Numbered from the stretch's first letter, positions 3,678 to 25,289 are shown. The stretch is DNA of 64,000 nt from an uncultured Nitrososphaerota archaeon (GCA_963799845.1 CAWCYI010000004.1:1024001-1088000), one strand, 5' to 3'. Translations and numbers: made by a program. The notes: generated by a model not told the origin, from the letters alone.

Positions 3678-6195
3678 ATGATGACTACAGTTCTGCGACA
3701 AGAGGAAAAGGAACAACCCAAGGGTAGAGTAGAAGATCCGAGACTTCTCACGGGCAAGGGACGCTTTGTTGATGATCTTAATGCTCAAAACCAGGCATAC
3801 ATGGGCCTCGTCCTCAGTCCATTTGCGCATGCTAAGATCAAGTCTATCGATCTTTCGAAGGTTCGCTCTTCGCCCGAGTTCATTGCATCGCTTACCGGGG
3901 AGGATCTGTTGAAGGAGGGCGTGCACCCTGTAGCACAAAATCCGTGGCCTCCGCAGAAGCATGCGAAACGGTACCACCTAGCGGTAGACAAGGTGAGGTT
4001 TGCTGGCGAACCGGTTGCGGCGATACTTGTGAAGAACAAGAGTTCCGTTGAGGATCTTATCGATCTGGTGGAAGTGGAGTACGAGCAGCTGCCGGTAATT
4101 ACTACAATCGAAGAGTCGAAGGAAAAAAAGGCACTGCTTTACGACGACTGGAAGGATAATCTTTCTCAGACAAATAAAGAAAAGAAGGGCGATGCAGCTA
4201 AAGCAATCTCATCGGCTTCTTACGTGGTCAACGCAAGATTGGGAATAAAGAGGCAGGAGGGCGCCCCGATCGAAACGCATGCCGTCCTCGTATCTTATGA
4301 CGAAGGGAAAGATATGTACGAAGTTTATTCTACAGTTCAGTCCGTGCACGGCCTCCAGGGTCAGCTGGCTTCCGAGCTTGGGACTCCAAAGAAAAAATTT
4401 CATGTTAAAGTGATGGATGTAGGAGGTGGATTTGGGAGCAAGGGAGGTCCGTCCTATCCCTGGCCTCTGCTTGCGTGCCTGCTTGCAAAAAGAACGGGCT
4501 TACCAGTCAAGTGGACTGCGAGCAGGACGGAGGAGTTTCTCGAAGCAGCAGCCGGAAGAGACGAGTATTGCGATGTGACCCTTGCTTGCGACCAAGACGG
4601 AAGGATGGTCGCTTTGCAGGCAAGCGTGGAGTGTGATGTCGGTGTATCCGGCACGCAGACCCATATGCCGTCCTTGACGATGTGGACGATGCCGGGACCG
4701 TACAACATACCCAATTTAGATACTCAAGGTAGCAGCCTACGTGACGAATAAGATGCCGATAGGGCCGGTCAGGGGAGCTGGAGCACCCGAGGGATGCTAC
4801 TTTATCGAACGGGTCATAGAAATAATGGCGAAGAAAATTGGGCTTGATCCTATAGAATTTAGGCGCCGCAACCTGGAAAAGCCAAGAAAGCCAGGTGAAG
4901 AAGATTACCAAGTTCTACTGGATACTCTAGTCAAATCTTCAAATTATGACGCTCTTTTGCAGTGGAGGCTCGGCCTGCTGTCCAAATTCAGACAGGAAGG
5001 TTCCGCTGCTTCAAAGGTTTTGGGAGGAATAGGGATTTCGGTACGCGGCAGCAGTGAATCGGAAGATGAGGAAGAGGATTGGGGCGGCGAGGGAGAGGGG
5101 TTCCAGGGCGGGGGTGACGAAGATAGAACTGCATCGTGGCAGAGCTCGGGGAATTCTAGTGGGTCAGCAAGCAATGCAGAAGCGAAACCAGGATCTTCAT
5201 CTTGGCAAAGGGGTGATAACAACGGCGATTCCTCTGAACAATGGAAATCTGGAACCGATGATGACGATGGTGGTGGTTTTTCCTTCATGACCGAGTCAGC
5301 CAAGGTCGTATTGGACTCCAATGGAGATGTGACCGTGTACACCGGCTCGTCGCCCCATGGACAGGGGGAAGAAACAACGTTTGCTCAGCTTGCCTCAGAT
5401 GAATTAGACGTCCCTCTCGAAAAGGTTCACGTCGTTTGGGGCGACACCTTATTGATTCCTTTCGGAATCGGAACATTCGGTAGCCGCTCAGCAGCTACTG
5501 GTGGAAGTGCAGTAGTTGATGCCACACGTAAGCTGAAATCGCACCTTCTCGAAAAGGCGTCCAAGGTTCTTGGGGTCGATGCGAAATTACTTGGGATACG
5601 AAATGGGACATTTGTGAATCTTTCAAATCCAAACACACCGCTATCGACTTTAGGGCAGACTCTCCAAAAGCTCGGAATGAATGAGATTTCGGCTGATTCG
5701 AAGTTTACTTTGAGCGCAATGAGTTATTCTAGCGGAGTTCATCTGTGTGTGGTAACTCTGGACGTCGAAACAGGTAAGGTGAAGGTCGAAAAGTATCTAG
5801 TCGTCGAGGACTGCGGACGAATGATAAACGAATCCATAGTTGAAGGGCAAATTCATGGCGGTGTGGTTCATGGGATTGGCGGGGCACTGCTTGAGCAACT
5901 GGCATACGACGAATCTGGGAACCTCTTAACTTCCACTTTCATGGACTACAGCATTCCAACATCTGTGGACAGCCCAGATGTCGAAATCTTCCACAGAACA
6001 ACTCCATCAACTGTTACACTCGACGGTGTCAAGGGCGTCGGAGAAAGCGGTACGATTGGTTCTTACGGGGCAGTCGTGAATGCTTTGAACGATGCTCTCT
6101 CGCAGGTTGAAAAGAGCAAAGAAATCAATGTTGCGCCTATAGTGCCTGATATCATTTATTCCGCTGCCCTAAATAACAAAGAGCATCACTTTTGA
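3678..6195 (+). CDS. Xanthine dehydrogenase/CoxL-family molybdopterin-binding large subunit, one frameshift
   Basis: RVEDPRLLTGKG, DVGGGFGSK, VRGAG, PHGQG, GSRS, GQIHGG and KGVGESG motifs. ORFs 3678-4751 and 4741-6195 join if one base near 4720 is removed (NLDLKVAAYVTNKMP). Confidence 0.9.
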
Positions 6196-6914
6196 ATAAG
6201 AATGTGCTGAAGCTTATCGAGAAAAGACAGTCTACAAGGATTCCCTTTAATTCTCGTCGACAAGTGGATAAAAGAGATCTCAAACAGATTATCGAAGCAG
6301 CGCGATGGTCACCGACGGCTCATAACATGCAGAACTTTGAAATTGTCGTGGTGGATGATACTAAGATCTTGAAAGCAATTGGGAACATCAAGTCTCAGAT
6401 TTCGGAGGATTTTCTTCGAGAGAACTATCAACAGCTCTCGTTCTCGAAGAAAGAGTTGCTCAGTAAGAAAGTGGGAATTCTCGGTTCCGGTTTTCCTCCT
6501 TCGTGGCGAGATCCAACAAAGCTGGACGCGGTCGCTAAAGAGAGTCCGCCAAGGCCTTTGAGCCAAACGATTCAGGGCAGCCCACTGCTGTTGGTAGTTG
6601 TCTATGATCCTCGTAAGAGGGCCCCCGCATCTAAAGGAGATTTCTTGGGTATTTTGAGCCTCGGCTGCGCAATGGAGAACATGTGGCTCATGGCCCAGTC
6701 TTTGGGGATAGGTTTTCAGGTAATGAGCATCTTCAGCAGTGTGGCCGTTGAGAAAGAAGTGAAGCGAGTTCTAAATATTCCTGGGCACATGAAGATTGCA
6801 TATGCCATTCGCTTGGGATATGCCCAAGGCAAGTCGACAGAATATCTTAGAGTACGCCGGGATCTGGAAACGTTAGCTCACCACAATCAGTTTGGAAATC
6901 TGGGTCTAGGATGA
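6192..6914 (+). CDS. Nitroreductase family protein
   Basis: KRQSTR, AARWSPTAHNMQ and ENMWLMAQSLGIG motifs. Confidence 0.9.
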   Translation: MNKNVLKLIEKRQSTRIPFNSRRQVDKRDLKQIIEAARWSPTAHNMQNFEIVVVDDTKILKAIGNIKSQISEDFLRENYQQLSFSKKELLSKKVGILGSGFPPSWRDPTKLDAVAKESPPRPLSQTIQGSPLLLVVVYDPRKRAPASKGDFLGILSLGCAMENMWLMAQSLGIGFQVMSIFSSVAVEKEVKRVLNIPGHMKIAYAIRLGYAQGKSTEYLRVRRDLETLAHHNQFGNLGLG

Positions 6915-6939
6915 ACGAATCTAATACGAAGGATATTGG

Positions 6940-6965
6940 TCTTCTTCTCGGATTTGATAATCGTG
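6940..6965 (+). promoter_or_regulatory. Island box, copy 2 (upstream of USP and ABC exporter)
   Basis: TCTTCTTCTCG-GATT-TGATAATCGTG, then 8 nt, then TTAAGTA. Confidence 0.7.
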
Positions 6966-7013
6966 TCCGGGGGTTAAGTATCTGAAGCGCCTCAACTGTC
7001 CCGTTGAGGAAGT

Positions 7014-7499
7014 TTGGCAGAGAAAGAAAGTTCGAATTCCGATCTATTTCATTTATCGAAGATTCTAGTTCCAACTGATGGCTCCGCAAACGCTAGCCGG
7101 GCTGTGAATGGTGGGATAGATCTCTCAAAAAAGTACGGTTCCGAACTTGTCGTTCTGTGCGTAATACCTTCTCCAACTCTTCTTGTAGAGGCCTCCGTTG
7201 GTCTAGGGATGGCGCCTGGGGGACTGGATTCCTATTACAAGCAGCAAGAAATGAGGGCCAATTATTTCATTGATGAAGCCGTGACCCTTGCCAAGACACA
7301 AGGCATCAAAGTGAGGAGTGAAGTGTCTCGTGCCGACAAGTCGATAGTTGGGGAAATAATTGAGATATCCATTCATGAGAAAATTGACTTGATAGTTATA
7401 GGCACGCGGGGCCTAGGTGGGTTTAGGAAACTGCTTCTAGGCAGCGTTTCAAGCGGCGTTGTAACTAATGCTCAGTGTAATGTTTTGGTCGTCAGATAA
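7014..7499 (+). CDS. Universal stress protein (UspA family)
   Basis: ILVPTDGS and DLIVIGTRGLGGFRKLLLGSVS motifs. Confidence 0.95.
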   Translation: MAEKESSNSDLFHLSKILVPTDGSANASRAVNGGIDLSKKYGSELVVLCVIPSPTLLVEASVGLGMAPGGLDSYYKQQEMRANYFIDEAVTLAKTQGIKVRSEVSRADKSIVGEIIEISIHEKIDLIVIGTRGLGGFRKLLLGSVSSGVVTNAQCNVLVVR

Positions 7500-7517
7500 G
7501 AGGGAAATTGACCCGTC

Positions 7518-8564
7518 ATGTCACAACAAAAATCATTGGAGCTATACCAAATAACGACATCCAAGGAAATTCTGAACCTCCAAAAACTGACGAAGAGTTT
7601 TGATGACAAGACAAATGTCGTCGATGATGTTTCGTTCACTGTATCGGAGGGTGAGATTTTTGGCTTTCTCGGCCCCAACGGTGCGGGAAAAAGTACCACG
7701 ATCAACATGCTGACAACGATTCTTCGTCCGACATCGGGAGACGCAACAATATGTGGTTATGATATAATCAAAGATCAAACCGCGGTGAGGAGAAGCATCG
7801 GCGTTGTTCCTCAAGAATCGACAGCTGATGAGGATTTAACTGGTCTTGAAAACGTGTTACTCTGCGCTGATTTTTATGGAATCCCAAGGAAAGTCTCAAG
7901 GCCACGTGCCTGGGAACTTCTCGAACTAGTAGAACTCTCCAAAGATGCGAAAAGAAAAGTCAGCACCTATTCCGGCGGCATGCGAAGGAGGCTTGAGTTA
8001 GCTTCAGGTCTGATAAATCGGCCTAAGCTACTGTTTCTCGACGAGCCGACCCTCGGTCTTGATGTTCAGACAAGAGCAGCAGTCTGGGAATACATACGCT
8101 TACTCAAGGCGGAATTTCACATGACTCTCTTTATGACCACCCACTATCTCGACGAGGCTGACAACCTTTGCGATCGAATAGCGTTGATAGATCACGGAAA
8201 GATTCTGACAATCGGTTCACCTGACGAGCTCAAGGAAAGCCTTGGCGGGGACATAATTGAAGTCGAAGTGCAAGATGGAACAGCCGATCTCTCAGAATCA
8301 ATACGGCGGGTTGAACACGTAGTTGATGTTAGAAAGACAAATTCCGACTACAGGATCAAGACAGAACTCGGAGAAGAGACAGCTCCAGCAGTTATGGAAG
8401 CACTGAGGTTAGCCGGTGCAAAGGTTGTTAGGATTTCAATTGCCAAGCCATCTCTCGATCAGGTGTATCTGGAATACACAGGAAAGTCCATCAGAGAAGA
8501 GCACGCTGATAGTAGCTCTCAGATCCCGAGACACGGAAGAATGTCGATGGGAATGCGAAGATAG
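7518..8564 (+). CDS. ABC-2/DrrA-type exporter ATP-binding subunit
   Basis: GPNGAGKST, YSGGMRRRL, LFLDEPT, TTHY. Confidence 0.95.
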   Translation: MSQQKSLELYQITTSKEILNLQKLTKSFDDKTNVVDDVSFTVSEGEIFGFLGPNGAGKSTTINMLTTILRPTSGDATICGYDIIKDQTAVRRSIGVVPQESTADEDLTGLENVLLCADFYGIPRKVSRPRAWELLELVELSKDAKRKVSTYSGGMRRRLELASGLINRPKLLFLDEPTLGLDVQTRAAVWEYIRLLKAEFHMTLFMTTHYLDEADNLCDRIALIDHGKILTIGSPDELKESLGGDIIEVEVQDGTADLSESIRRVEHVVDVRKTNSDYRIKTELGEETAPAVMEALRLAGAKVVRISIAKPSLDQVYLEYTGKSIREEHADSSSQIPRHGRMSMGMRR

Positions 8565-8581
8565 ATGGAGGTTGGATAGAT

Positions 8582-9556
8582 GTGACAGAATCAGTAACAA
8601 CAAGCAACAAGAAAGATCTAGCCAAACAAGAATTGAGTGAAGTCCCGACGTTGGAACGAACGAGCCAACACATGTCGGCATTCGAGCAAGAGACCGCCCT
8701 CAACCAGAGCTCGCTTCATGGCTTGTGGGCCCTTACAAACAGAGAGCTAAAGAAATGGTACAAGGCCCCGATAATACTGATCCTCTCTCTAATTCAGCCC
8801 GTCATCTGGCTCGGATTATTTGGCAAAGCGATGAACTTCGGAGCGATCTTCACCGGTAGCTCGTTCAACATACCTGGGCTTAACATCCCGAAAAGTGTGC
8901 TCGACACGCTTTCAAGCCAGATTATGCAGAACACGTTCGGTACAAGTGATTATTTCTCGTTTCTTGCAGTTGGCATGTTATCTTTCATTTCACTCTTCAT
9001 GGCCATGCAGAGCGGCATGTCCGTAGTTTGGGACCGGCGGCTGGGCTTCCTGAACAAGGAATTAAGCACGCCGCTTGCACGAGGTGCTTTTCCCATTGGT
9101 AAGGTCTTCTCTTCAATCCTGAGAGGACTCACTCAAGCGGCTACCGTGCTCATCATAGCGATATTGTTGGGGCTCGATGTCTCTCACATCACGGTCGTTG
9201 CAATACTTGGCACTTTTTCCGGGATCTTCCTAATGGTGATGGGCTTTTCTTCATTGTTTGTGATGCTAGCAGTTCGCTCCAGCAATCAGGACACCCAGAT
9301 GATGATAGTAAATCTGTTGAACCTTCCCCTGCTTTTTGCGAGCAATGCTATGTTTCCAGCAAAATTCATGCCGAGCTGGCTTCAGCCTGTGGTTCAGGCA
9401 AATCCGGTCAGCTACGCGACTGATATTTCTCGTCAGCTTCTTCTCGGTTCTACAGGCATGGCAAGTCTGGGTTTTGACTTTCTATATCTGGGAGCGTTCG
9501 CCGTGGCGATGCTGATACTTGGAACATACATATCATGGAGATTCCTTTCGAAGTAA
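8582..9556 (+). CDS. ABC-2/DrrB-type exporter permease
   Basis: Multi-TM protein with WDRRLGFL, LLFASNA and NPVSY patterns, following the ATPase. Confidence 0.9.
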   Translation: MTESVTTSNKKDLAKQELSEVPTLERTSQHMSAFEQETALNQSSLHGLWALTNRELKKWYKAPIILILSLIQPVIWLGLFGKAMNFGAIFTGSSFNIPGLNIPKSVLDTLSSQIMQNTFGTSDYFSFLAVGMLSFISLFMAMQSGMSVVWDRRLGFLNKELSTPLARGAFPIGKVFSSILRGLTQAATVLIIAILLGLDVSHITVVAILGTFSGIFLMVMGFSSLFVMLAVRSSNQDTQMMIVNLLNLPLLFASNAMFPAKFMPSWLQPVVQANPVSYATDISRQLLLGSTGMASLGFDFLYLGAFAVAMLILGTYISWRFLSK

Positions 9557-9658: not shown

Positions 9659-10438
9659 TTACTCTATTATTCTTCTCAGCGCCATCGAAGCAAGCGCGAT
9701 AAATGCGAAAGTCGAGATGAGGAGTACACCAATATCCACTGGAAGATTCGAATAATTTCCAGTCAAAAGCATGGCACGCATGGCGTCAACCACATAGCTA
9801 AGTGGGTTGAACTTTGATACATACTGAAGCCAAGTCGGCATTATGGAAGTTGGATAGATTGCATTGCTTGCGAAGAAAAGTGGCATGGTAATTGCCTGCC
9901 CAATCCCCATCATTCGGTCACGAGTCTTGAAGAACGAGGCGAGCAGCATGGAAAGGCTCGAAAAGCACATTGCAAATAATATGATTACCACGAACACACC
10001 TACAACATCAAACACATCGAACCGGAGGTTCACTCCGATTATCAATGCGAGGGCGAATATTACAACTGCCTGAAACACTCCTCTGATGCTTGCCGCTAGG
10101 GCTTTCCCGATTACGATTGAAGATATACGTGAAGGCGTTGAAAGAAGTTTCGTTAGTAGTCCCATATCCCTCTCCCAGACTATGGTTATGCCGTAGAATA
10201 TTGCCACGAACAGGACAGACTGCGCAAGCACTCCTGGAGTTAGATACTGAAGATACGTGTACCCCGGAGGTGCAAGTCCGTGAACCGCATTGAAGACTTC
10301 TCCGAAGATAAGGAGCCAAAGGAGCGGCTGTATTGTTCGTATCCAGAGCTCGGTGGAATCATGTTTGATTTTCCTTGCCTCCATCTTTGCGATTGTGAGC
10401 GAATCTTCGACTGACTCTACTGCTGCGCTCATAACCAC
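9659..10438 (-). CDS. ABC-2 exporter permease (second system)
   Basis: WERDMG, PLFFASNA and NPLSY patterns. Confidence 0.9.
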   Translation of the reverse strand: MVMSAAVESVEDSLTIAKMEARKIKHDSTELWIRTIQPLLWLLIFGEVFNAVHGLAPPGYTYLQYLTPGVLAQSVLFVAIFYGITIVWERDMGLLTKLLSTPSRISSIVIGKALAASIRGVFQAVVIFALALIIGVNLRFDVFDVVGVFVVIILFAMCFSSLSMLLASFFKTRDRMMGIGQAITMPLFFASNAIYPTSIMPTWLQYVSKFNPLSYVVDAMRAMLLTGNYSNLPVDIGVLLISTFAFIALASMALRRIIE

Positions 10439-10441
10439 TTG

Positions 10442-11416
10442 CTACCTTCCAAAGCTCCGCCTTGTGGAGCGCACATCTTGAATTGTCCCCGATTCTAGAC
10501 TCCTCCCTCCGTACTTGAGAAAGACGTCGCCCAATGTCGGTCTAGCAAGAGAAATTGACGCGATTACAATGCCGTTCCTCTCAAGATAATTAACGACAGG
10601 TGCAATCTCTACCTCCCCATTTGCAGTCTGTATCTCAAGCAATCTGTCTTCTGATTTTACTAGCGTACCAATCTCGGTTGGCAAAGTTGAAGGTATCTTT
10701 CCCTCCCTGATCTTGATCGTCAGGATGTCGACGTCCACGGTCCTTTTCAAATCCTCGGGTGAACCGGTTACTGCTATCTTGCCGGAGTTCATGATTGACA
10801 GTCTCTGACATAATTCATTGGCTTCTTCCATATCGTGAGTTGTGATGAGAATCGTAGTTGCGAACTCGGTGCTCAGTCTCTTCACGTAATCCCAAACCTG
10901 CGTCTTGGAAGCAGGATCAAGCCCTATAGTCGGCTCGTCGAGGAAGAGAACTCTTGGTCTGTTAACTAGTGCTTGTGCTATTTCCAGCCGCCTCATCATT
11001 CCCCCAGAATAATGCTTAGCAAGATCATTTGCCCTAGATGTCAAGTCCATGTACTCGAGGGCTTGATCTATTCGCGCATGCCGTTCCTTTTTGTCTACGT
11101 GAAATAACATCGCGAAAATCAGAAGGTTCTCATAACCAGAAAGGTCTCCGTCAACAGAAACAGCCTGAGGAACATACGCTAGCTTTTTCCTGACTTCTCT
11201 CGGCGACTTGATCGCGTCCATCCCCAGTACTCTAATAGAGCCCGAAGTCGGTTTCGCAAGGGTTGTAAGCATCTTTATTGTGGTAGTTTTTCCAGCACCG
11301 TTTGGACCAAGCAGCCCAAAGACCTCCCCTTCTTCGATCGAAAAAGAAATCCCGTCAACTGCTTTTGTACCTTCGCCATAGACCTTTGTTAACGACTCAA
11401 CCTCGATAGCTTTCAA
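10442..11416 (-). CDS. ABC-2 exporter ATP-binding subunit (second system)
   Basis: GPNGAGKTT, YSGGMMRRL, LFLDEPT, TTHD. Confidence 0.95.
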   Translation of the reverse strand: MKAIEVESLTKVYGEGTKAVDGISFSIEEGEVFGLLGPNGAGKTTTIKMLTTLAKPTSGSIRVLGMDAIKSPREVRKKLAYVPQAVSVDGDLSGYENLLIFAMLFHVDKKERHARIDQALEYMDLTSRANDLAKHYSGGMMRRLEIAQALVNRPRVLFLDEPTIGLDPASKTQVWDYVKRLSTEFATTILITTHDMEEANELCQRLSIMNSGKIAVTGSPEDLKRTVDVDILTIKIREGKIPSTLPTEIGTLVKSEDRLLEIQTANGEVEIAPVVNYLERNGIVIASISLARPTLGDVFLKYGGRSLESGTIQDVRSTRRSFGR

Positions 11417-11461
11417 TGTTCTCTACAAGACTTGTTGAGCGCAATCATTCTAAAGGGTGAA

Positions 11462-11487
11462 GACGATCTTCATATGTGAGAATTAGT
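11462..11487 (-). promoter_or_regulatory. Island box, copy 3
   Basis: + strand GACGATCTTCA-TATG-TGAGAATTAGT; good half faces the minus-strand ABC gene; weak TTTAGAA ~7 nt further. Confidence 0.65.
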
Positions 11488-11555: not shown

Positions 11556-12797
11556 TTAATCCCATAAAATTCGAGGTGCCTCAACAGTACAGACATCCTC
11601 GACGGCTTTCATTGTCCTGTTCCTCAACTCATCAAGCCCAATGAACTCTCGCACTAATCTTCCATCTCGGATGAGCGGTTTTAACAAGGGCCTGTATTCA
11701 GCAGAAGGTGATTTTTCATCGAGTGTGACGATATCTTCGAAAGTTTTCTGATTCCGAAATACATTCTTTCTTCCGGAAAGGTCGCCCCTTTTTGTGATGA
11801 GCATCCGCTTTCCATCCTCGCTTTCTTTCTCGACAATCTTGTCGCAAAAATCGATTATCGGAGCGGCCGAAATACCGGCCCCAATTCCAAAACCATCCAC
11901 GAAATCTCTCAATTCTACGACGTCTTGTTCGTCTAAACCACCAGAAACTATTATCTTAACTTCCCCAGCATTCCGGACTTTGAGTTCCCACTTTACTTCT
12001 TGGACTAGTTTCCTCATGTCACCCCTCCTTGAAGTTGGAGTGTCAAGCCTAACTCCGTATAGTTTGTTTCCCAGAGTCTCGTAGGCTTTTATGGCTGCCA
12101 TCTTTTCGTCGCTCAGAGTATCAATTAGAGCAATCCGTGGGACTTCGGGTGGTAACGCTTGATCGAAAATTTTCCAGGCTTGAGCTTCATCTCCCACGCA
12201 TAAAATGAAGGCGTGTGGCATCGTTCCGCTAGCCTTCTTATTCATGAGTTTTGCTCCCAGGACATTTGAAACACTAGTTACTCCTCCAATGTATGAGCAT
12301 CTTTCGACCAGAGGTGCAAGCGCTGGGTGAACGCGCCGGGTACCGAAGCTGATAATCATTCTGCCTCTCGCAAGATGAACAAGTCTTGCTGACTTCGTAC
12401 AGATTCCACTAGACTGAGCCAGCAAACCTAGTATCGGGTTTTCATAAATTGCAATATCTTGGTATCGACCTATTATTCTTAGAACAGGCTCATTCACTGC
12501 AACTGTCGGGTCAGTAAGAAAGACTTCTCCCTCTTCCATAGCATCGACATCCACCGGAAGACCTTGCAAGAGTTTTGCAATTTCGTAAATGCCACAAGCA
12601 ACGGCCCAACGTGCACCGAAAGGATTCGTTCTTGTAAAGACCTCCATTGTTACTTTCGGATTTATGCCAGCAAATCTCAGAGCGTCACGAGCATATTCAA
12701 AGTAGATGTCCGTCGTGAGTCCATCTTTGATCTCTTGCTCCTTCGGCATCCAGAAGAGACGGTCATGGAGATCGCTTCTTAGATTGCTATCAATCAT
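11556..12797 (-). CDS. pncB: Nicotinate phosphoribosyltransferase (archaeal type)
   Basis: TTDIYF, SFGTRR, GTMPHA, GVRLDT, VSGGLD. Confidence 0.9.
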   Translation of the reverse strand: MIDSNLRSDLHDRLFWMPKEQEIKDGLTTDIYFEYARDALRFAGINPKVTMEVFTRTNPFGARWAVACGIYEIAKLLQGLPVDVDAMEEGEVFLTDPTVAVNEPVLRIIGRYQDIAIYENPILGLLAQSSGICTKSARLVHLARGRMIISFGTRRVHPALAPLVERCSYIGGVTSVSNVLGAKLMNKKASGTMPHAFILCVGDEAQAWKIFDQALPPEVPRIALIDTLSDEKMAAIKAYETLGNKLYGVRLDTPTSRRGDMRKLVQEVKWELKVRNAGEVKIIVSGGLDEQDVVELRDFVDGFGIGAGISAAPIIDFCDKIVEKESEDGKRMLITKRGDLSGRKNVFRNQKTFEDIVTLDEKSPSAEYRPLLKPLIRDGRLVREFIGLDELRNRTMKAVEDVCTVEAPRILWD

Positions 12798-13344: not shown

Positions 13345-13402
13345 TTCGCAATAACACCTCTTCGGTGCTGTTCTTATTAGATCAAGCAATAAGAACACAG
13401 CA

Positions 13403-14309: not shown

Positions 14310-14347
14310 AAGTGAAATAGACGAGAGGCTATCCATTATATTGATAG

Positions 14348-16941: not shown

Positions 16942-16993
16942 TTCAACTTCACTTGAGATGGATCTTGCAGCGTTCGTGCATATATCTTGAGAA

Positions 16994-17019
16994 GACGATT
17001 ATCAAATTTGGTAATACCT
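16994..17019 (-). promoter_or_regulatory. Island box, copy 6
   Basis: + strand GACGATTATCA-AATT-TGGTAATACCT; ATATAT 8 nt further on the minus strand. Confidence 0.75.
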
Positions 17020-17360
17020 CAGCCCTTCTCGTCTGCTATGGTTTGAAGTGTATTCGCGTTATCCATCCAATCCGTCCAAGGGATCTTTGCCCGTTAAGAG
17101 GGCTTTCGATCCGCGTCTAAACAATTTTCGCCAGATCGTCTTCTGGTTTGATCTCCCCTGCGCACCTTATTTCTTTTTAGGATCTTCGTCGTCGACACAA
17201 AATTAGGATAAATCACTCGCGATTTTTTCGCCGGCGTCACTTAGAGGACACGTATTGAAAGCATCCCGTATCATATGACATCTCGACGCCGGCATGCTTA
17301 ACGCATTTGAGAAACCTGTTGACTTGGATTAATTCAAGAAACAAAAAGTATCTGTCGTAA

Positions 17361-18042
17361 TTAAGCTTGAACAACGTTTCCCGGATTCTTTGGTCGTGTC
17401 CTTCTCTCGGTTAGATCAATTTCTTTCAGTGCGTTTTTCACTTCATTGTCTTCTACTTGTTCAAACCGTTCATAGAACTCGCCTATTGCATAGAATGGTT
17501 CGGGAGTCTCAAGACAAATTACTTGGTCTGCCACACTTGAGAGCCGCCCAACTGTTTCGGATGGAGCCACTCCTAATGCAAGAATAATTTTCGCTGGTTT
17601 TTTCCTCTTAACAGATTCGATTGCCGCCAGCATTGTATTCCCAGTCGCTACTCCGTCGTCCACAATTATTACGGTCTTTCCTGTGAGATCTGGATACGGC
17701 CTCTCTCCCCGATATTTTTGCATCCTATCTGTAATTTCTTTTTTTTGCCTCAGCTGATTCTTCTTTCAGGTACTCTTTGCTTATTCCGTATTCTCTCACG
17801 ATATTTTCGTCTAAAATCAGCTCACCATCTTGAGTAACCGCTCCTATGGCGAACTCCTCCTGACCTGGAAATCCTATCTTCCTCGTGATTACGAGATCCA
17901 GCTTGGCTCCGAGAGAAAGTGCAATTTCTTTTGCAACCGGTACGCCTCCTCGTGGAATCGCCAGCACAATCGGATTCTTGAACTTCATTCCAATAATCCT
18001 GTCGGCAAGAAGTTTGCCTACTTCAGTTCTATCACGAAACAA
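17361..18042 (-). CDS. Phosphoribosyltransferase (Rv0571c/Rv2030c N-terminal type), one frameshift
   Basis: FRDR, LAIPRGGVPVA, RKIGFPGQEEFAIGA, then VDDGVATG and AIGEFYERF. Frames join if the T8 run at 17739-17746 is T7. Confidence 0.9.
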
Positions 18043-18049
18043 AGTTTTC

Positions 18050-18709
18050 TCACAGATACTCCTCAAACCAATTTGAAGCATGCCTTGCTACTTGAGCAAG
18101 TGTTCCGGGCTCTTCGAAGAGATGAGTTGCATGAGGGACGACAATCAGTTTCTTTTTCCTAGAGGCTATCAGAGCCAATGCAGAACGATTCAATTCGAGG
18201 ACCTCTTCATCATTTCCTCCAACAATCAGAAGAGTTGGTACGTTCACTCGAGCAAGATGGGAGCCTGCCATGTCAGGTCTACCTCCTCTTGAGACAACAG
18301 CGCAAACTTCATTCGGCCCTAAATCGGCTGCCGCTCTGAGCGCCGCTGCTGCGCCGGTGCTCGCTCCAAAATACCCCACTCGAAGTAAACGTTTCTTGAT
18401 GTTATGTTTGACCCAGTTCGATGTATCTTCAAGCCTCTTTGTGAGCAGGTCGATGTCAAACCTCGTCTCATAATTCTCGTCCTCATTCTCCGTCAGAAGG
18501 TCGAAAAGCAGGGTGCCGAATCCAGAATCTTGAAGAACTTCAGCAACGTATCGGTTTCTCGGACTGAGTCTACTACTTCCGCTTCCATGGGCGAAAATCA
18601 CCAAACCCTTCTTGTTCGAACGTGGCTCGACCAGATCTCCGTGCAAAGTCGTGGAATCGATTCTAATTGTTACTGATGTATTGGCGGATCCTTGCATTTC
18701 TTTTCCCAT
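18050..18709 (-). CDS. Dienelactone-hydrolase-like alpha/beta hydrolase
   Basis: FAHGSGSSRLSPRN, GYFGASTG, VSRGGRPD, ATHLFEE. Confidence 0.9.
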   Translation of the reverse strand: MGKEMQGSANTSVTIRIDSTTLHGDLVEPRSNKKGLVIFAHGSGSSRLSPRNRYVAEVLQDSGFGTLLFDLLTENEDENYETRFDIDLLTKRLEDTSNWVKHNIKKRLLRVGYFGASTGAAAALRAAADLGPNEVCAVVSRGGRPDMAGSHLARVNVPTLLIVGGNDEEVLELNRSALALIASRKKKLIVVPHATHLFEEPGTLAQVARHASNWFEEYL

Positions 18710-18751
18710 ACTTCCCGATCCGATCCTTTGATGTTACGAACTATTTCCGCC

Positions 18752-19099
18752 TCAGCATGTCAAGTGCAGAACGGCGTTCGTTTCCTCAGGGTTCTTCATC
18801 AACTGAGCAATAGCCTCCGACGTTGGGAGGATGGACAACTCGATTTTGCGACGCTTAGCTTCTCTCTTGACTTCTTCCATTACTGGAAGGGCTCCACCAC
18901 CAGTTCCGATCACCAAGTGATTACACTTCCAAGGTATCTCCTCTTCTAGGGAGAGTGGAGTATGGCCAAAGGCATCACGAAACTTCTTGGATTGCTTCTT
19001 TTTGCGCTTGAATACCTTCCCACGATCTATAACGACATCGTGATCATATTTGATCCCATTAATGCAGATTGAACCAAAGGAAAATTCTTCAAATTGCAT
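18752..19099 (-). CDS. Mth938-like (DUF498) protein
   Basis: FSFGSI.ING..Y..D, LVIGTG and C-terminal HLTC. Confidence 0.85.
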   Translation of the reverse strand: MQFEEFSFGSICINGIKYDHDVVIDRGKVFKRKKKQSKKFRDAFGHTPLSLEEEIPWKCNHLVIGTGGGALPVMEEVKREAKRRKIELSILPTSEAIAQLMKNPEETNAVLHLTC

Positions 19100-19176
19100 T
19101 GCGCTTCACTCGCGTTGACATTGCAACATTCGTTCGACCGATATGCGAACTGCACGAGTCGTATTTAATGATCGGG

Positions 19177-19202
19177 CACGATTTTCAGAGTTGGGAATCA
19201 TA
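19177..19202 (-). promoter_or_regulatory. Island box, copy 7
   Basis: + strand CACGATTTTCA-GAGT-TGGGAATCATA; TTAAATA 8 nt further on the minus strand. Confidence 0.75.
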
Positions 19203-19295
19203 CCTTCTTAAGAAGGAGGCATTTCAGTGCTCGAACGATAATAGAAAACAAGGCCTTATCTGAATCTTGGATGAAAATGTCTATACGTGCACAAC

Positions 19296-20279
19296 TTAAT
19301 TGCGAACTATCGCTTCAAAACAACCTTCGGATTTCTTCAGAACTAATCCAGTACCAAGCTCCGCGCATAATTGGCGCATCTTGTTTCCTATCAATCGAAT
19401 CTCCAGTCCTTTAACAAGATTTGCTTGAAACTTCTCAATCCTAGTTGGATAGAGTTCTATCCTATCGATTTTATCGTCTTCGCCTTCTAATGAGAATACA
19501 AAAGACTCGTCGTTGCGTTCGACTGGATCAATAGCGTAATCATCGATGAAATCACCGGTGCAGTAAAGAATCGGCCGACGCTTGAAAATCTCAATTCCTC
19601 TGAAAACATGGCCGGAGTGCCCGAACACAATATCTGATCCAGCTTCCACCAAAGCATGTGCAAATCGAGTGCGCTCCTCTGGCGGCTCATATCCCCAGTT
19701 TGGTCCCCAGTGAGCGGAGACTATGAGTAAATCGACCGACTCTTTGGAGCGTTTGACAAGATCTAGAAAGCGAACTGACCGCTCATCCGTCAACTCGGAT
19801 GGGACAAAGAGTACTCCACGTCTGATGGATGTGGCTTCCCACTCAGGTTCGTTGTCCGTGAAAGCAACGACACCAATTTTCTTATGATGAGTATTCAGAA
19901 GTGCGAGTCGTTCTGCTTCGTTTAGGGAACTGCCCAGGCCAGCATGCTTGATGTTCGCGTTATCTAGTAGTCTCAACATGTCTTCAGCAGCTTCATAACC
20001 GTAATCTAACGAATGATTGTTGGCTGAAGAGATCACATTGATATCTCCAGCGGACAGAACTCTGACATTCTTGGCGTCTGAACGAAAGTGGAATTCCTTT
20101 ACTGTTGCAGACCATGGTTTTCCTATGTTAGAAATCACGCACTCTAGGTTGCACATTCGAATGTCGGCGGAATGAAAAAGAGAGAGTGTGTTGCCCCACG
20201 GATAGTCTGGTGATCTCTGTCTTAGAACTTCATTGACAAGTCGACCCAGCATGACATCACCGACCAATACAATTCGCAT
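19296..20279 (-). CDS. CapA/PGA_cap family metallophosphoesterase (Rv0574c-like)
   Basis: GDVMLGR, NLE, ANNHSLDYG, SAHWGPNW, GHSGH, GDFIDDY. Confidence 0.9.
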   Translation of the reverse strand: MRIVLVGDVMLGRLVNEVLRQRSPDYPWGNTLSLFHSADIRMCNLECVISNIGKPWSATVKEFHFRSDAKNVRVLSAGDINVISSANNHSLDYGYEAAEDMLRLLDNANIKHAGLGSSLNEAERLALLNTHHKKIGVVAFTDNEPEWEATSIRRGVLFVPSELTDERSVRFLDLVKRSKESVDLLIVSAHWGPNWGYEPPEERTRFAHALVEAGSDIVFGHSGHVFRGIEIFKRRPILYCTGDFIDDYAIDPVERNDESFVFSLEGEDDKIDRIELYPTRIEKFQANLVKGLEIRLIGNKMRQLCAELGTGLVLKKSEGCFEAIVRN

Positions 20280-20342
20280 AAAACGATCAAACCTGACTCT
20301 TATGATTTAGTTGAGTTATTCGTAAAGTGGTCAAGCGAAAAT

Positions 20343-20471
20343 TCATTGGCCCGGACCGTCAGCCTGATAGATCCTATTGCAGATGCATCCCCTGCATGTG
20401 CATCGTTTCATGGTGCATTCTGAAGCGCTCATGTGACCACATTGGCTGCAATGCTTTTTTTGGTTGTTCAT
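20343..20471 (-). CDS. 42-aa Cys-rich micro-protein (metallothionein/zinc-finger-like), absent from ORF track
   Basis: Hand translation MNNQKKHCSQCGHMSASECTMKRCTCRGCICNRIYQADGPGQ; ATG 12 nt after the RNR stop. Confidence 0.7.
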   Translation of the reverse strand: MNNQKKHCSQCGHMSASECTMKRCTCRGCICNRIYQADGPGQ

Positions 20472-20482
20472 ACTAATATCGC

Positions 20483-22581
20483 TCAATAAGGGCAGGTGCT
20501 CCCCACGCACCCTCCGGAATATTCAGAATCAGCTACGACGTGTTTATCTCCATGTTGCTTTTCTAGCGCGTTAATTGTAAGTACCTGTTGAGACTTGCTT
20601 CCGTATCTGTAGACTGTAATTCCTTTGCAAATCAACCGCCAAGCCAGCAAGTAAGAATGCCTAACATCTTCGAGGCTGGCGTTCTGGGGCAGATTTACGG
20701 TCTTTGATACCGCGTTGTCAACATATTTTTGAAATTCTGCTTGAATTCGGACGTGCCACTCCGGAGAAATATCTAGGGCCGTCCTAAAAACATTCTTCAC
20801 ATTGGAGGGAATTTGATCAGAGCCCTGAACCGAGCCAGTTTCGGCAATCTTGAATATAAGATCCGATGAAAAGAAACCGCTTTCAATTGCAAGTTCTTCG
20901 AAGAGCTTATTGACTTCCAAGAGCTTGGTTCCCTCCATAATGTCCCTCACGAATGAAACAGCGAATAGAGGTTCGATTCCTGATGAACAGCCAGCAATGA
21001 TACTTATCGTTCCTGTTGGCGCTATGGTTGTGGTTGTCGCATTCCTCATCGCCTTGTAACCTTCTGCGTACCAAATGCTTTTTTTGAAATTTGGAAATGA
21101 TCCCCTTGACTCAGCTAGTTTCTGCGAAGTATCGTGTGAAGTTCCTTGAATCAATTTCATTAATTTGCGCGCCACCAAGAGCGCGTCTTCAGAATCATAT
21201 TTCACTCTAAGCATGATCAACATTTCCGCAAAACCCATAACACCCAAACCAATTTTTCTATTCGAGAGCGTAATCTTTGAGACTCGATTAAGCGGATATC
21301 TGTTTGCGTCAATTACGTTGTCCAAGAAGTGGATTGAATCGCGGACGACTTTTCGAAGTTTCTCCCAATCTAAGTCTCCATTTTTCACGAATTTTGTGAG
21401 GTTGATGCTCCCCAGGTTGCAGGATTCGTAAGGCAGTAACGGCTGCTCCCCACATGGATTGGTGGCTTCTATTGGCCCGACTCCTGAAGTTGGATTCGCT
21501 CGATTTATTGCATCAATGAATATCAGACCCGGGTCTCCGGTCTCCCAAGCTTTCGAAACAATCATTTCAAATATTTCTGAAGCCGAAATTTTTGCGACAG
21601 CTTTAGAGTTCTCGGATTAACAAGATCAATCTTTTTCCCGTTTAGCACTGCTTTCATGAACTTGTCATCGACGGCTACAGATATGTTGAAGTTTTGGAGA
21701 AATCCTGGTTTTGATTTTGCAGTTATGAATTCCATTATGTCTGGATGGTAGGCTGATAGGATTCCCATGTTTGCTCCGCGTCTTCTACCCCCTTGCTTGA
21801 TCTCCTCAGTGGTTGCATCGAATATCTTCATGAAGGAAACTGGACCGGATGCCACTCCTCCAGATGTTTTCACGTAATCTCCACGCGGTCTCAACCGGCT
21901 GAATGAGTAGCCAGTCCCGCCCCCGCTCTGATGGACTAGAGCGGTTGCCTTGACCGCGTCGAATATGCTAGAGAGATTATCTTCGATAGGAATCACAAAA
22001 CAGGCAGATAGCTGCCCCAACCGGGTGCCCGCATTCATTAGCGTGGGGGAATTCGGTAGAAATTCTAGTTTTGCCATCATGTCATAGAATAAATGTTCAG
22101 TTTCCTGAACATCAGTGGATGAATTGTATCTTTTGTCAACCTCCGCAATCGTACGAGCGACTCGCCTGAACAATTGACTCGGTGTTTCAACGACATTTCC
22201 GTTTTCGTCCTTCTTCAGGTAGCGTCGCTCTAAAACCTTGATGGCGTTCAGTCCCAGCTTGAGGTCGTCGACAACGCCAACAAGCTTTTTGGAGTCTCGA
22301 ATACGTGCTCGCTCATTTCTGTAGAGTATGTACGCTTTTGCGGCACGATCAAACCCATTCTTGATCAAGCAATCCTCTACTATGTCTTGAATATCTTCGA
22401 CCGACGGAATCCGGCTCCGATACTTTGCGTTGAGGTCTGAAACAACTTGATTGGTCAGACTTTCAACTGTGGACTCAGAGTACTGATTCACTGAACGAAA
22501 TGCTTTGCCTAGGGCGTTTGCAATTCTATCTTTGTTGAAAGCCTGGATACGGCCGTTCCTTTTCTTTATCCTAGAAATCAA
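20483..22581 (-). CDS. nrdJ: Class II (B12-dependent) ribonucleotide reductase with ATP-cone, one frameshift
   Basis: N-terminal ATP-cone, PNSPTLMNAG, LSACF, RRGANM, TNPCGEQPL, IAPTGT, C-terminal Cys pair. Frames join by adding one base in the T run at 21602-21604. Confidence 0.92.
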
Positions 22582-22634
22582 CTAAAATTCGCCACTTTTC
22601 CTTTATCGCCAAAGGCCGATGATGAGCAAAAGAA

Positions 22635-23075
22635 TCATTCGAAGATAGTTTGGTATTCAGCTCTTGCAGCCGCAGCAAGCATCGGCTCTTTTCTTGCCTT
22701 CGCACTCAAGAACTTTGCAAAGTCAGTAGTAGTGAGCATTCCGACAACTCGTGAATGGTCTCTAACTGGGAGCCTCCTAATTCCATTCTTTATCATGAGC
22801 TTCGCAGCCTCGGAAACCGGAGCCCGAGGTGAGATAGCAATTACGGGTGTAGTCATGATCTGCGACACTTGGGTCTTTTGGAATGATCTTCCTTCGGCAA
22901 CAACTCTGTGAACGATGTCTCTCTCTGTAACTATGCCAACAAGAATACCTCGATTCATCACAACTAGACATCCGCTGTGAACCTCTTTCATTCTCTCGGC
23001 TGCATTTTTGACGGTTGCATCAGGACGAATGGAATGTATTACATTTTTCGTCATCAGGTCCGTTACATTAACCAT
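22635..23075 (-). CDS. Two-CBS-domain protein (Rv2626c/Hrp1-like)
   Basis: GIVTERDI, IRRLPV, VGMLTTTD. Confidence 0.9.
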   Translation of the reverse strand: MVNVTDLMTKNVIHSIRPDATVKNAAERMKEVHSGCLVVMNRGILVGIVTERDIVHRVVAEGRSFQKTQVSQIMTTPVIAISPRAPVSEAAKLMIKNGIRRLPVRDHSRVVGMLTTTDFAKFLSAKARKEPMLAAAARAEYQTIFE

Positions 23076-23130
23076 AACCCAAAGACACTCTCCCGTAAGC
23101 AAAGACGGGATTCAGAATAAAGGTGAGCTA

Positions 23131-23156
23131 GACGATCATCAATAATGAGAACGCAA
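23131..23156 (-). promoter_or_regulatory. Island box, copy 8 (CBS-nrdJ-capA run)
   Basis: + strand GACGATCATCA-ATAA-TGAGAACGCAA; TTTATT 9 nt further on the minus strand. Confidence 0.75.
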
Positions 23157-23341
23157 TTTCTCTTGGCAAAACTCAGTTTGTGAAAGAATTACTCAATCAC
23201 GATTGGCTTTTGCCCAAACTGTCTTAATTCAACTAATTCCTCTTTTGCCAATTCATCCAGGTAATGGAGAGCCAACAAGGTATCATCTCTGTTGACAATA
23301 TCAAGTGCCATTTCAAGATTGGTTGTTATCCTGATTTGCAG

Positions 23342-23367
23342 CTCCTTTTTCAGTATTGATAATCGTC
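23342..23367 (+). promoter_or_regulatory. Island box, copy 9 (dnaK)
   Basis: CTCCTTTTTCA-GTAT-TGATAATCGTC, then 8 nt, then TTAAAT. Confidence 0.75.
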
Positions 23368-23404
23368 TACCGGACTTAAATCCCCGGGCTATCTTTGCAA
23401 ATCC

Positions 23405-25289
23405 TTGGAAAAGAGAGAATCATCGGAGATGGCCAAAGTGAGCGATGCCGGTCAAAGTCAGAAAATCCTTGGAATAGATCTCGGAACGACAAATTCTGCT
23501 GGTGCCATAATGGAAGCTGGTCGTGCACTCACGATACCCAGTGCTGAGGGTCCAACTATAGCTGGAAAAATGTTCCCCTCAGTTGTGGCATTTACGAAAG
23601 AAGGACAACTGTTAGTGGGCGAACCCGCAAAGAGACTTTCTGTCTCAAACCCGGAATCTACAATATTTGAAATCAAGAGGAAAATGGGTACCGATTACAA
23701 AGTCAGAGTGGCTGGAAAAGAATTCACCCCACAGCAAATCTCGGCTTTTATTCTTCAAAAGATCAAGAAAGATGCAGAGAGTTATCTTGGATTTCCTATA
23801 AAAAAAACAGTAATTACTGTCCCTGCCAATTTCAATGATAATCAACGCCAAGCTACCAAGGACGCGGGGGAAATAGCGGGGCTTGAAGTAGTAAGGATAA
23901 TCAACGAGCCGACGGCAGCTTCTCTTGCCTACGGTCTTGACAAAGCTGGTAAAGATCTCAAGATAATGGTTTTCAGCTTTGGAGGAGGGACGAACGATAC
24001 AACTCTGATGGACTTTGGTGGAGGAGTCTTCCAAGTCGTTGCGACGAGTGGAGACACGCAAACTGGGGGAACAGACATCGACAGCGCAGTCGTAGAGTAC
24101 CTCATCGAAAGTTTCCGCTCCCAGACTGGCCTCGACCCTCACAACGATGTCACAGCCATGGTCAGATTAAAGGAAGCCGCCGAGAAAGCCAAGATCGAAC
24201 TTTCGAACCTCTTCACAACTGAGGTCAACCTGCCCTTTCTCTTAGCAGATTCGAATGGGCCAAAACATCTGCAGCTCACCATGAGCAGGGCAAAATTAGA
24301 GCAGCTCTCTCTTCCGATTGTGCAAAAAATACGCGAACCAATATTCAAGGTCCTGTCTGACGCAAAGATAGAACCGAAAGATATCGACAAAATAATCCTG
24401 ATTGGAGGGATGACGAGGATGCCATTAGTTCGAAGGACCGTGGAAGAACTGATGGGAAAGGTTGTTGAAAGTGGAGTTGATCCAATGGAGTGTGTAGCCA
24501 TCGGTGCTGCAATCCAAGGAGCCATTCTTGCAGGCGAAGTTCGTGATATCGTTCTCTTGGATATCACTCCCTTGTCTTTGGGGGTGGAGACGCTTGGAGG
24601 CGTGATGACCAGACTCATAGATCGAAACACAACCATTCCGACGAAGAAAAGTGAACTATTCACGACCGCAGCGGACTCTCAGACGGCAGTAACTATTCAA
24701 GTGCTTCAAGGCGAACGGCCGATGGCGTCAGACAATGTTTCACTTGGAATGTTCAACCTCATGGGCATACCTCCAGCGCCGAGGGGGATACCGCAGATCG
24801 AGGTTACATTCGATATTGATGCGAATGGAATCTTGAATGTCGCCGCCAAAGACCTTGCAACCGGAAATCAACAGAGAATAGCCATAACTGCATCGACAAA
24901 GCTTAGCGAAGAAACAAAGTCAAAGATGATTAGAGAAGCCGAGCAATTTGCTGAGCAAGACAAATTCAAGAGGGAAGAAGCCGAGATCCGAAACAATGCA
25001 GATTCTCTACTTTATTCAGCCGAGAAAACAAAGAAGGACCTTGGCGAAAAGATTAGCAAGGAGAATTTGGAACGCCTAGACAAAGTTTCATCAGAACTGA
25101 AACAGAAACTATCAGGAAAAGATGTCAGACTTATCCAAGCTGAAGATGGAAGAGCTCAACAAAGTGTTACAGGATATAGGTACTGCAGCTTATCAAAGAG
25201 TGGGCGAGCAACAGCAACGAAGATCTACAGATCAACCTTCGACTGAAGACAAGAAAGTGATCGACGCAGACTATCAGGTAGTCTCATAA
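23405..25289 (+). CDS. dnaK: Hsp70 chaperone DnaK, frameshift near the 3' end
   Basis: [45 protein letters not shown]. Removing one C at ~25136 restores the tail ...[14 protein letters not shown] at 25289. Confidence 0.97.

Follow-up and report, generated by a model that had tools for sequence, protein, structure and literature searches.

A shared promoter box marks a possible anoxia or dormancy regulon in a family of soil Nitrososphaerota

Introduction

Two bacterial systems, the Mycobacterium tuberculosis DosR regulon and the lxa locus of Burkholderia cenocepacia, are the closest described counterparts of the gene set analysed here, which lies in a 64,000-nucleotide stretch of an uncultured Nitrososphaerota archaeon (GCA_963799845.1, CAWCYI010000004.1:1024001-1088000; the whole stretch is called the window below) and whose units share a 22-nt sequence upstream of their genes, the box. 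The DosR regulon's member genes are preceded by Dev boxes, palindromes with GGGACT half-sites (PMC3177182). The lxa locus overlaps the DosR regulon in content (PMC3721108), and the mycobacterial ribonucleotide reductase (RNR) NrdZ groups with archaeal NrdJ (PMC4428469).

The regulons of soil Nitrososphaerota are almost unknown. The cis-element of the window is large and sharply defined, and its gene set can be read. At archaeal upstream activating sites, such as those of Ptr2 and TFB-RF1, the regulator binds directly upstream of the transcription factor B recognition element (BRE) and TATA box, and these core elements are weak. The place just upstream of BRE and TATA is the usual location of archaeal activators.

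An original prediction, made from the window's sequence, held that positions 6192-25289 carry a set of boxed units paralleling the DosR regulon and wired to a different, archaeal-style operator. We find that the window holds the largest island of a family-wide regulon of about 80 promoters in a soil archaeon. To the interpretation that this is an archaeal anoxia or dormancy regulon under a regulator other than DosR, with the oxygen signal inferred from gene content, we assign a probability of roughly 45%.

Results

A promoter box shared by the units

The recurring sequence upstream of the units first surfaced in a repeat search of the window. The aligned sites consist of a 16-bp palindrome, TTMTCA-N4-TGAKAA, with the extension TCGTCT, which gives the 22-nt consensus TTMTCA-N4-TGAKAATCGTCT; their flanks contain a TATA-like TTTAAATA about 7 unconserved nucleotides downstream of the box. 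The pattern TTCTCN4TTGATAATCGTCT, with up to 3 mismatches, has 13 matches in the window against 0.11 expected, and none of 100 shuffles reached 13; the same pattern at the same tolerance has 55 matches in the 4.6-Mb genome. A 46-nt weight matrix built from the aligned sites with their flanks gives 92 strand hits of at least 18 bits in the genome, most of them at 22-38 bits, and no such hit in the reversed genome. Merging the readings of the palindrome on both strands leaves 81 unique sites genome-wide; the 64-kb window accounts for 16 of these, and a second island at C4:300-340 kb for another 12. An open reading frame (ORF) of at least 70 amino acids (aa) begins 5-120 nt past the TATA at 72 of the 92 hits, compared with 831 of 2000 random places. 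Because of the enrichment of pattern and matrix hits and this placement of ORFs after the TATA, the boxed units are real, oriented promoter elements. The boxed units of the original prediction are thereby borne out, as is its archaeal-style operator: the units share one archaeal-type promoter-proximal box.

The boxes of the window span 2094-44382, and one further box lies 3.2 kb upstream of the window; the gene island is larger than originally proposed. Soil metagenome runs contain the stretch. The names carried by a few CapA homologues, and the taxa of the clusters closest to a regulon protein, make the organism a probable member of the Nitrososphaerota. Among the papers listed by literature searches, none with the box strings deals with archaea, and none names Nitrososphaera together with the promoter terms.

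Conservation of the box among relatives

The genomes searched were 12 of the family and 28 that represent 19 further families in the order. All tallies include G001, which is flagged as unpublished, and none of the claims depends solely on it. The pattern TTMTCAN4TGAKAATCGT with at most one mismatch was found in all 12 family genomes, with 1-73 hits each. Among the other genomes of the order, 26 of 28 have 0-2 hits, the exceptions being G028 (12) and G032 (6), and a backwards-pattern control gave 0-1 hits in every genome.

In a family member of a different genus (G007), a 39.8-kb stretch holds 21 strand hits, corresponding to 16 sites, with boxed universal stress proteins (USPs), boxed CBS proteins and a box-CBS-P-ATPase unit. 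The same stretch has a boxed hydrolase followed by an intact phosphoribosyltransferase (PRTase; 61% and 65% identity to the window's proteins) and then a homologue of the window gene at 39080-39745. A relative of the same genus (G003) retains the order divergent box, box, 2xCBS protein, RNR at 88-90% identity, together with the divergent DnaK-type box. For the genes that these relatives possess, the units are thus neither scattered nor unboxed. Synteny, which the original prediction had proposed to look for across archaeal genomes, is kept for the box-CBS-RNR and hydrolase-PRTase units; CapA and the hydrolase are mostly absent from relatives. Five chosen close relatives yielded no CapA of this subfamily, and CapA loci at the level of the order show little synteny.

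The many copies of the box and their grouping in islands could also be expected of a dispersed repeat, such as a miniature mobile element, that is not a regulatory site. However, conservation is limited to the 22 nt and the TATA, the orientation of the box and its distance to the start codon are constant, and the box is kept at orthologous promoters of other genera. We therefore consider a dispersed repeat extremely unlikely.

Genes of the window

Genes were called from an ORF listing and from Pfam and NCBIfam profile scans with curated cut-offs. All gene families named in the original prediction are present at the places given for them. The boxes and genes are as follows (Pfam marks families assigned from that database).

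2094-2115, plus strand: box, 32.5 bits, driving CoxG, amidohydrolase, xanthine-dehydrogenase-family large subunit and nitroreductase
2196-2660, plus strand: CoxG (Pfam)
2676-3641, plus strand: amidohydrolase (Pfam)
3678-6195, plus strand: xanthine-dehydrogenase-family large subunit, split into two ORFs (Pfam)
6192-6914, plus strand: nitroreductase PF00881, 101.7 bits, last gene of the CoxG operon
6945-6966, plus strand: box, 31.5 bits, driving a USP and an ABC-2 ATPase and permease
7014-7499, plus strand: USP (Pfam)
7518-9556, plus strand: ABC-2 ATPase and permease
9659-10438, minus strand: permease of a second ABC-2 exporter
10442-11416, minus strand: ATPase of the second ABC-2 exporter
11461-11482, minus strand: box, 31.3 bits, driving the second ABC-2 ATPase and permease
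11556-12797, minus strand: nicotinate phosphoribosyltransferase (NAPRTase), archaeal type, NF006415 454.4 bits (cut-off 243)
12841-13344, minus strand: stand-alone receiver-like protein, Response_reg 26.4 bits (cut-off 30.2)
13402-13423, minus strand: box, 33.6 bits, matching the search pattern exactly, driving the receiver-like protein and NAPRTase
13539-14309, minus strand: 4xCBS protein, 256 aa, four tandem CBS stretches (Pfam)
14347-14368, minus strand: box, 32.2 bits, driving the 4xCBS protein
14464-16197, minus strand: PolX, 328 nt after the 138-aa gene, without a box of its own
16525-16941, minus strand: 138-aa protein, no family assigned
16993-17014, minus strand: box, 32.8 bits, driving the 138-aa protein
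17361-18081, minus strand: type I PRTase, two ORFs in the window
18050-18709, minus strand: alpha/beta (DLH-type) hydrolase (Pfam)
18752-19099, minus strand: DUF498 (Pfam)
19176-19197, minus strand: box, 31.5 bits, driving DUF498, hydrolase and PRTase
19296-20279, minus strand: CapA/PGA_cap (PF09587) metallophosphatase-family protein, 241.3 bits (cut-off 27)
20483-22581, minus strand: class II (adenosylcobalamin-dependent) RNR with an N-terminal ATP-cone, split
22635-23102, minus strand: 2xCBS protein (Pfam)
23130-23151, minus strand: box, 30.3 bits, driving the 2xCBS protein, class II RNR and, after a 204-nt gap, CapA
23347-23368, plus strand: box, 35.5 bits, driving DnaK
23405-25246, plus strand: DnaK
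31953-33107, minus strand: PnrA/Bmp-type binding protein
33155-33176, minus strand: box, 35.0 bits, driving the PnrA/Bmp-type binding protein
35223-36488, minus strand: AllG-family gene
36555-36576, minus strand: box, driving the AllG-family gene
36617-36638, plus strand: box divergent from the preceding one, driving carbamate kinase
36727-37734, plus strand: carbamate kinase (arcC), 411 bits (cut-off 358, NCBIfam)
37917-37938, plus strand: box preceding a 74-aa ORF
38797-38818, plus strand: box, 34.2 bits, no ORF of at least 40 aa within ~200 nt downstream
39080-39745, minus strand: 221-aa protein, no family assigned
39833-39860, both strands: palindromic box, driving AAA_assoc_C, ZT_dimer and P-ATPase (plus) and the 221-aa protein (minus)
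39921-40496, plus strand: AAA_assoc_C (Pfam)
40572-41363, plus strand: ZT_dimer (Pfam)
41442-43949, plus strand: MgtA-type P-ATPase, TIGR01524 798.6 bits (cut-off 610.75)
44361-44382, plus strand: box, 34.8 bits, followed by a 53-aa ORF and then the Pterin_bind protein
44962-45840: Pterin_bind protein (Pfam)

The hydrolase and PRTase are two genes with a 32-nt overlap, hydrolase first. At 17751, short-read contigs lack one letter of the window; they come from two runs of a single study, which may be the source sample. With that letter removed the PRTase is a single 239-aa frame, and the split in the window is therefore an assembly error. The RNR changes frame at about 21603-21612 by comparison with G003, where it is one 698-aa frame. 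Contigs from four soil runs of one study all end at 21600-21615, and none of them bridges the frame change. On the NrdJ_Z model TIGR02504 (cut-off 399.95) the C-terminal half of the RNR scores 435.3 bits and the N-terminal half 280.9. The third split gene encodes the large subunit of a molybdenum enzyme of the xanthine dehydrogenase/carbon monoxide dehydrogenase family, whose ORFs (3678-4751 and 4741-6195) overlap, the division falling midway through the MoCoBD_1 domain. A further frame error of the assembly is the probable cause, and it suggests that there are more of them.

The 138-aa protein and a 191-aa protein matched only unnamed clusters in an atlas look-up. The boxes at 38797-38818 and 44361-44382 may drive small proteins or non-coding RNAs. 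Downstream of dnaK, the spacer holds a 55-nt copy (25474-25528) that is 85% identical to 24830-24884 in the 3' part of the gene and resembles a leftover of a duplication. The region 27777-37734 groups an FdrA-like (CoA-ligase-fold) gene, a PnrA/Bmp-type ABC importer comprising two permeases and a double ATPase, the AllG-family gene and carbamate kinase, a set that recalls the anaerobic oxamate/carbamoyl-phosphate branch of purine breakdown, which yields ATP.

Content of the regulon and the proposed oxygen signal

The content of the regulon was read from the window genes and from 40 first-after-box ORFs outside the window, chosen from 60 by leaving out close paralogues and doubtful short ORFs, and scanned by family. 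Clustering recovered boxed paralogues of CBS proteins (7), USPs (5) and flavodoxins (3), and Pfam added one further USP. Six of the genome's 10 USP genes are directly boxed, as are 7 of its 27 CBS genes, with up to 4 more CBS genes downstream in possible operons. The boxed oxidoreductases comprise zinc alcohol dehydrogenase-type, short-chain dehydrogenase/reductase, FAD-binding (fumarate-reductase-type fold) and F420H2-quinone-reductase-family proteins; alpha/beta hydrolases, an amino-acid permease, a CitMHS transporter and many proteins without family assignment are also boxed. In the second island, at C4:332110-333204, two divergent boxed USP genes are interrupted: one contains an internal TAG, the other a frame change.

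The RNR, NAPRTase, DnaK and PolX of the island are second, putatively stress-dedicated paralogues beside unboxed copies. The boxed RNR shares 38% identity with an intact housekeeping RNR at C4:97.4-98.9 kb and 38-40% with the RNR that is the only one in most relatives. The boxed NAPRTase is 68% identical to an unboxed copy on C1; NAPRTase is single-copy in 9 of 12 relatives, and these nine genes, like the C1 copy, have no box within 1.5-kb flanks. Second copies of DnaK and PolX on C6, with no box nearby, are 68% and ~40% identical to those of the window. Two further P-type ATPases (C7:39608-42555 and C4:1966462-1969292), also with no box nearby, are 30% identical to that of the window, and each follows a CBS match inside a 623-aa open frame.

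An operon elsewhere in the genome points to a possible signal. Behind the box at C7:34860 comes an NrdG-like radical-SAM activase (C7:34306-34779), followed 17 nt on and on the same strand by the class III RNR NrdD (C7:32622-34289; PF13597, 353 bits). The activase scores 101.2 bits on TIGR02491 (cut-off 126.1) and 93.7 bits on Fer4_12 (cut-off 22). Class III RNR functions solely without oxygen, and the boxed operon makes low oxygen a plausible signal. A weaker NRDD-like match (59 bits) lies at C4:95834-96562, directly upstream of the housekeeping RNR.

A haem-copper oxidase subunit I encoded in the genome makes it most likely that the organism respires oxygen. McrA was not found in the genome, and a blank search for AmoA is uninformative, its control matching nowhere. 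For the boxed carbamate kinase, which stands back to back with the boxed AllG-family gene, we infer that together with the FdrA-like genes, the importer and the molybdenum hydroxylase operon it serves a purine-type breakdown yielding ATP at substrate level.

The same box and regulon might instead answer to general energy limitation or stationary phase, that is to any growth arrest and not to oxygen specifically. USP, CBS, DnaK and PolX proteins are generic growth-arrest functions, and both CBS proteins have their best PDB matches among the Sri ribosome-hibernation factors of Methanosarcina, which act in extended stationary phase (PMC13454478). The 4xCBS protein hits the Sri chains 9ZNF (E 1.5e-17) and 9ZNI (E 1.8e-15) best, at a similarity no stronger than that to other CBS proteins such as MJ1225, and the 2xCBS protein likewise has Sri factors as its best hits. 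A 'SriC-short' clade has been described chiefly in Nitrososphaerales (PMC13454478), and we treat a role of the boxed CBS proteins in ribosome hibernation as a lead only. However, a class III RNR and its activase are of use to a cell solely when oxygen is absent, and here they are boxed, as are the extra oxygen-independent class II RNR and carbamate kinase. We regard a general arrest signal as rather unlikely.

The regulator and the mode of control

A 16-bp palindrome implies a dimeric binding protein. Activation by this protein is favoured over repression by about two to one, because the box keeps a fixed place immediately upstream of a weak TATA and of a BRE position without conservation: each of the six positions directly after the box, where the BRE would lie, carries at most 0.2 bits in the matrix.

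A conserved candidate gene in the second island encodes an ArsR-like HTH_20 protein (C4:304534-304887; Pfam 26, cut-off 27). It has a box, as do its close orthologues in 4 of 5 genomes. The protein has no relative in the PDB and no NCBIfam hit, and HTH_20-like proteins also occur in box-poor genomes. As a master regulator it is weakened by its record in two box-rich relatives, G004 and G011 (41 and 73 pattern hits), in which 0 of 3 and 0 of 5 homologues are boxed. A boxed Lrp/AsnC-like gene was rejected as the regulator; it belongs to a family with many copies whose distribution does not follow that of the box. This family has 15 matches in the genome (for example C6:560446, C8:67382 and C4:535631), several with internal stops and two of them boxed, and its matches in G004, G007 and G011, all rich in boxes, are no more than weak.

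ArsR/SmtB-type proteins are usually repressors, and the boxed HTH_20 gene with its boxed close orthologues would agree with a box that is a repressor operator, for instance of an ArsR-type protein that leaves the DNA under stress. Against an operator of this kind, the box lies wholly upstream of the TATA at a fixed spacing from it, next to a BRE position without conservation, and few of the HTH_20 homologues are boxed. We judge repression unlikely, and favour the box as an activating site.

The receiver-like protein upstream of NAPRTase hints at a phosphorelay input: its Asp and Lys-Pro align with the phospho-acceptor positions of CheY. It has no DNA-binding domain, and no NarL-type DevR was found in the window. 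The genome has seven HATPase_c (kinase-type) genes, five of which are clustered within 36 kb at C4:1850993-1887026, adjoining an unboxed multi-USP gene.

Relation to the DosR gene set and to a bacterial cassette

The original prediction had excluded a DosR or DosS homologue from the window, and this stands: the receiver-like protein, below its threshold, is the sole candidate, and Dev boxes are at chance (GGGACN4GTCCC with at most one mismatch, 2 in the window against 1.13 expected, none at these promoters). Its description of the ATPase as MgtA-type and of the chaperone as an Hsp70, both as analogues, is also supported, the former passing the TIGR01524 cut-off and the latter being DnaK. Other parallels give way at the level of the subfamily. 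The NAPRTase had been called PncB, the type to which we take Rv0573c to belong; it falls short of the bacterial PncB-type model TIGR01513 (159.4 bits, cut-off 297.4) and is of the archaeal subfamily. The nitroreductase had been likened to Acg-type proteins and does not reach their model NF047509 (38 bits, cut-off 199). The proposed counterpart of Rv2626c, the 2xCBS protein, is an ordinary CBS pair that aligns with it end to end (E 7e-9), a match that about 30 other CBS proteins in the PDB surpass. NAPRTase, nitroreductase, ATPase and chaperone are counterparts of the DosR set by function and not by subfamily. Whether DUF498 is a counterpart of Rv0572c is moot, since Rv0572c is described as having no Dev box and as not being induced (PMC3177182).

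The claim that Rv0570-Rv0574c are matched almost one for one holds for RNR, hydrolase, PRTase and CapA, which are true relatives of Actinomycetota proteins (33-58% identity), and fails for NAPRTase. A probable orthology to Rv0570, Rv0571c and Rv0574c is argued here through other Actinomycetota. Two of 401 sampled Actinomycetes genomes have an RNR 51-52% identical to the boxed RNR, and a locus in one of these two holds PRTase, hydrolase (58%), RNR (44-51%) and a CBS protein within 7.5 kb. Dev-box-like sites (GGGACN4GTCCC, 1 mismatch) lie 83 and 91 nt upstream of both Actinomycetes RNRs (L160/G228 9030; L161/G369 11591), against a background of ~2.6 expected per 20 kb, which hints at DosR-type control of the archaeal-like RNR in those two Actinomycetes.

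The window's CapA matches 3872 proteins at E<=0.001, the best 120 of them at 54-91% identity. The few named matches are from Nitrososphaerota, Geotalea, Eisenbacteria and candidate-phyla bacteria, and one match is a PGA_cap-PRTase fusion protein (P0089). We examined 80 CapA loci from species genomes of many phyla for neighbours by tblastn with the window proteins (E<=1e-3). The hydrolase was found at 18 of 80 loci (50-59% identity except at one locus, 36%), the PRTase at 11, a CBS protein at 7, the RNR at 3, a USP at 2 and DUF498 at 1. An MgtA-type ATPase occurs at 4 of the 80 (three at 43-46%), as do PolX (40-46%) and NAPRTase; the identity of the last, 24-31%, places the neighbouring NAPRTases in another subfamily. 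Tight PRTase-hydrolase-CapA operons occur in a Parachlamydia metagenome-assembled genome (MAG), a Bryobacterales MAG and Actinomadura (L134), where the three genes are adjacent and CapA is 33% identical. A Thermodesulfobacteriota MAG has the order RNR-PRTase-hydrolase-CapA with NAPRTase nearby. PRTase and hydrolase are adjacent in the bacterial loci, PRTase first. This neighbourhood turned up in none of our literature searches, none of which was aimed at it.

These loci bear on the view that the likeness to DosR is superficial, a set of common stress families standing together by chance without shared history. USP, CBS, nitroreductase, P-ATPase and chaperone do match at the level of the superfamily only, and NAPRTase comes from another subfamily. 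We consider this view very unlikely: RNR, hydrolase, PRTase and CapA have the Actinomycetota relatives described above, hydrolase and PRTase adjoin CapA in several phyla, and the fusion protein P0089 exists. The parallel with the DosR regulon thus stands in content and falls for the subfamilies of NAPRTase, nitroreductase and CBS protein.

As a tentative possibility, the PRTase-hydrolase-CapA trio, often with class II RNR, NAPRTase, an MgtA-type ATPase or PolX, may be a horizontally moving cassette found across the two domains that serves survival without respiration and has an undiscovered nucleotide- or NAD-related chemistry. It would have been captured independently by DosR in mycobacteria and by a box-binding activator in the soil Nitrososphaerota family, where about 80 promoters, including those of stress paralogues, would be under this activator.

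Discussion

In the proposed programme, a dimeric DNA-binding protein would bind the box and recruit the TATA-binding protein and transcription factor B, so that the box would serve as an upstream activating site when respiration fails at low oxygen or anoxia. Deoxynucleotides would then be supplied without oxygen by the extra class II RNR and by class III RNR with its activase. Pools of NAD and nucleotides would be kept by the extra NAPRTase and the PRTase-hydrolase-CapA trio, and ATP would come from substrate-level phosphorylation involving carbamate kinase, AllG, FdrA-like genes, a purine-type importer and the molybdenum hydroxylase. The extra DnaK and PolX copies, the USPs and the CBS proteins, which may silence ribosomes, would protect macromolecules.

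Several points weigh against this programme. A search of the 12 family genomes found CapA of this subfamily in none and the hydrolase in a single one; the DosR-like core is therefore accessory in this lineage. A boxed cupredoxin/multicopper-oxidase protein, the flavodoxins and VKOR would suit oxygen use or general stress. The genome, a MAG, has a completeness of 86.7% and a contamination of 4.9%, and no RNA run is listed as holding 16900-23500. The preference for activation derives from the position of the box alone. No sensor was found, none of the seven HATPase_c genes having a box nearby, and the sole conserved boxed transcription-factor gene, HTH_20, is boxed in only 5 of the 32 homologues examined.

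Part of the mycobacterial dormancy set, that resembling Rv0570-Rv0574c, belongs to a widely shared cassette whose biochemistry is uncharacterised, and the archaeal cassette would offer a non-pathogen route to the functions of these proteins. The gene content further suggests that aerobes of both domains share a kit for arrest under oxygen loss, made up of RNRs that need no oxygen, of NAD salvage, of USP and CBS proteins and of ion pumps.

Among known systems, the placement of the box is that of the Ptr2 and TFB-RF1 sites, with the difference that the box-binding protein is here only predicted. The archaeal hydrolase and PRTase are separate genes, whereas Rv0571c is presumably a PRTase fused to a hydrolase in one protein. 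Like the DosR regulon, the archaeal one has some 50-80 genes in a few blocks under one palindromic site, among them several USPs, a protein with a CBS pair, another with the nitroreductase fold, a P-type ATPase and a chaperone. The DosR block Rv0569-Rv0574c likewise has an extra class II RNR and NAPRTase beside housekeeping copies, a PRTase-hydrolase and a CapA-like protein (PMC5309233, PMC3177182), and the archaeal paralogues mirror M. tuberculosis nrdZ beside nrdEF and pncB2 beside pncB1 (PMC4428469). The two differ in the sequence of the box, and no NarL-type regulator or haem kinase was found in the archaeon. CapA follows RNR instead of preceding pncB2, and the archaeal regulon adds class III RNR, carbamate kinase and, beside a boxed unit, PolX.

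The lxa locus is a ~50-kb island in an aerobe that is induced by low oxygen and needed for anoxic survival. It has in common with the archaeal regulon USPs and a nitroreductase, a class II RNR accompanying an oxygen-dependent one, a cation ATPase, and zinc alcohol dehydrogenases as well as fermentative enzymes that yield ATP (PMC3721108). It is bacterial and has another regulator. We found no archaeal counterpart of a low-oxygen regulon of the DosR or lxa type in print. DosR, lxa and the resemblance of NrdZ to NrdJ (PMC4428469) are thus the known part of this picture, and the proposed archaeal regulon of this kind, together with its box, is the new one.

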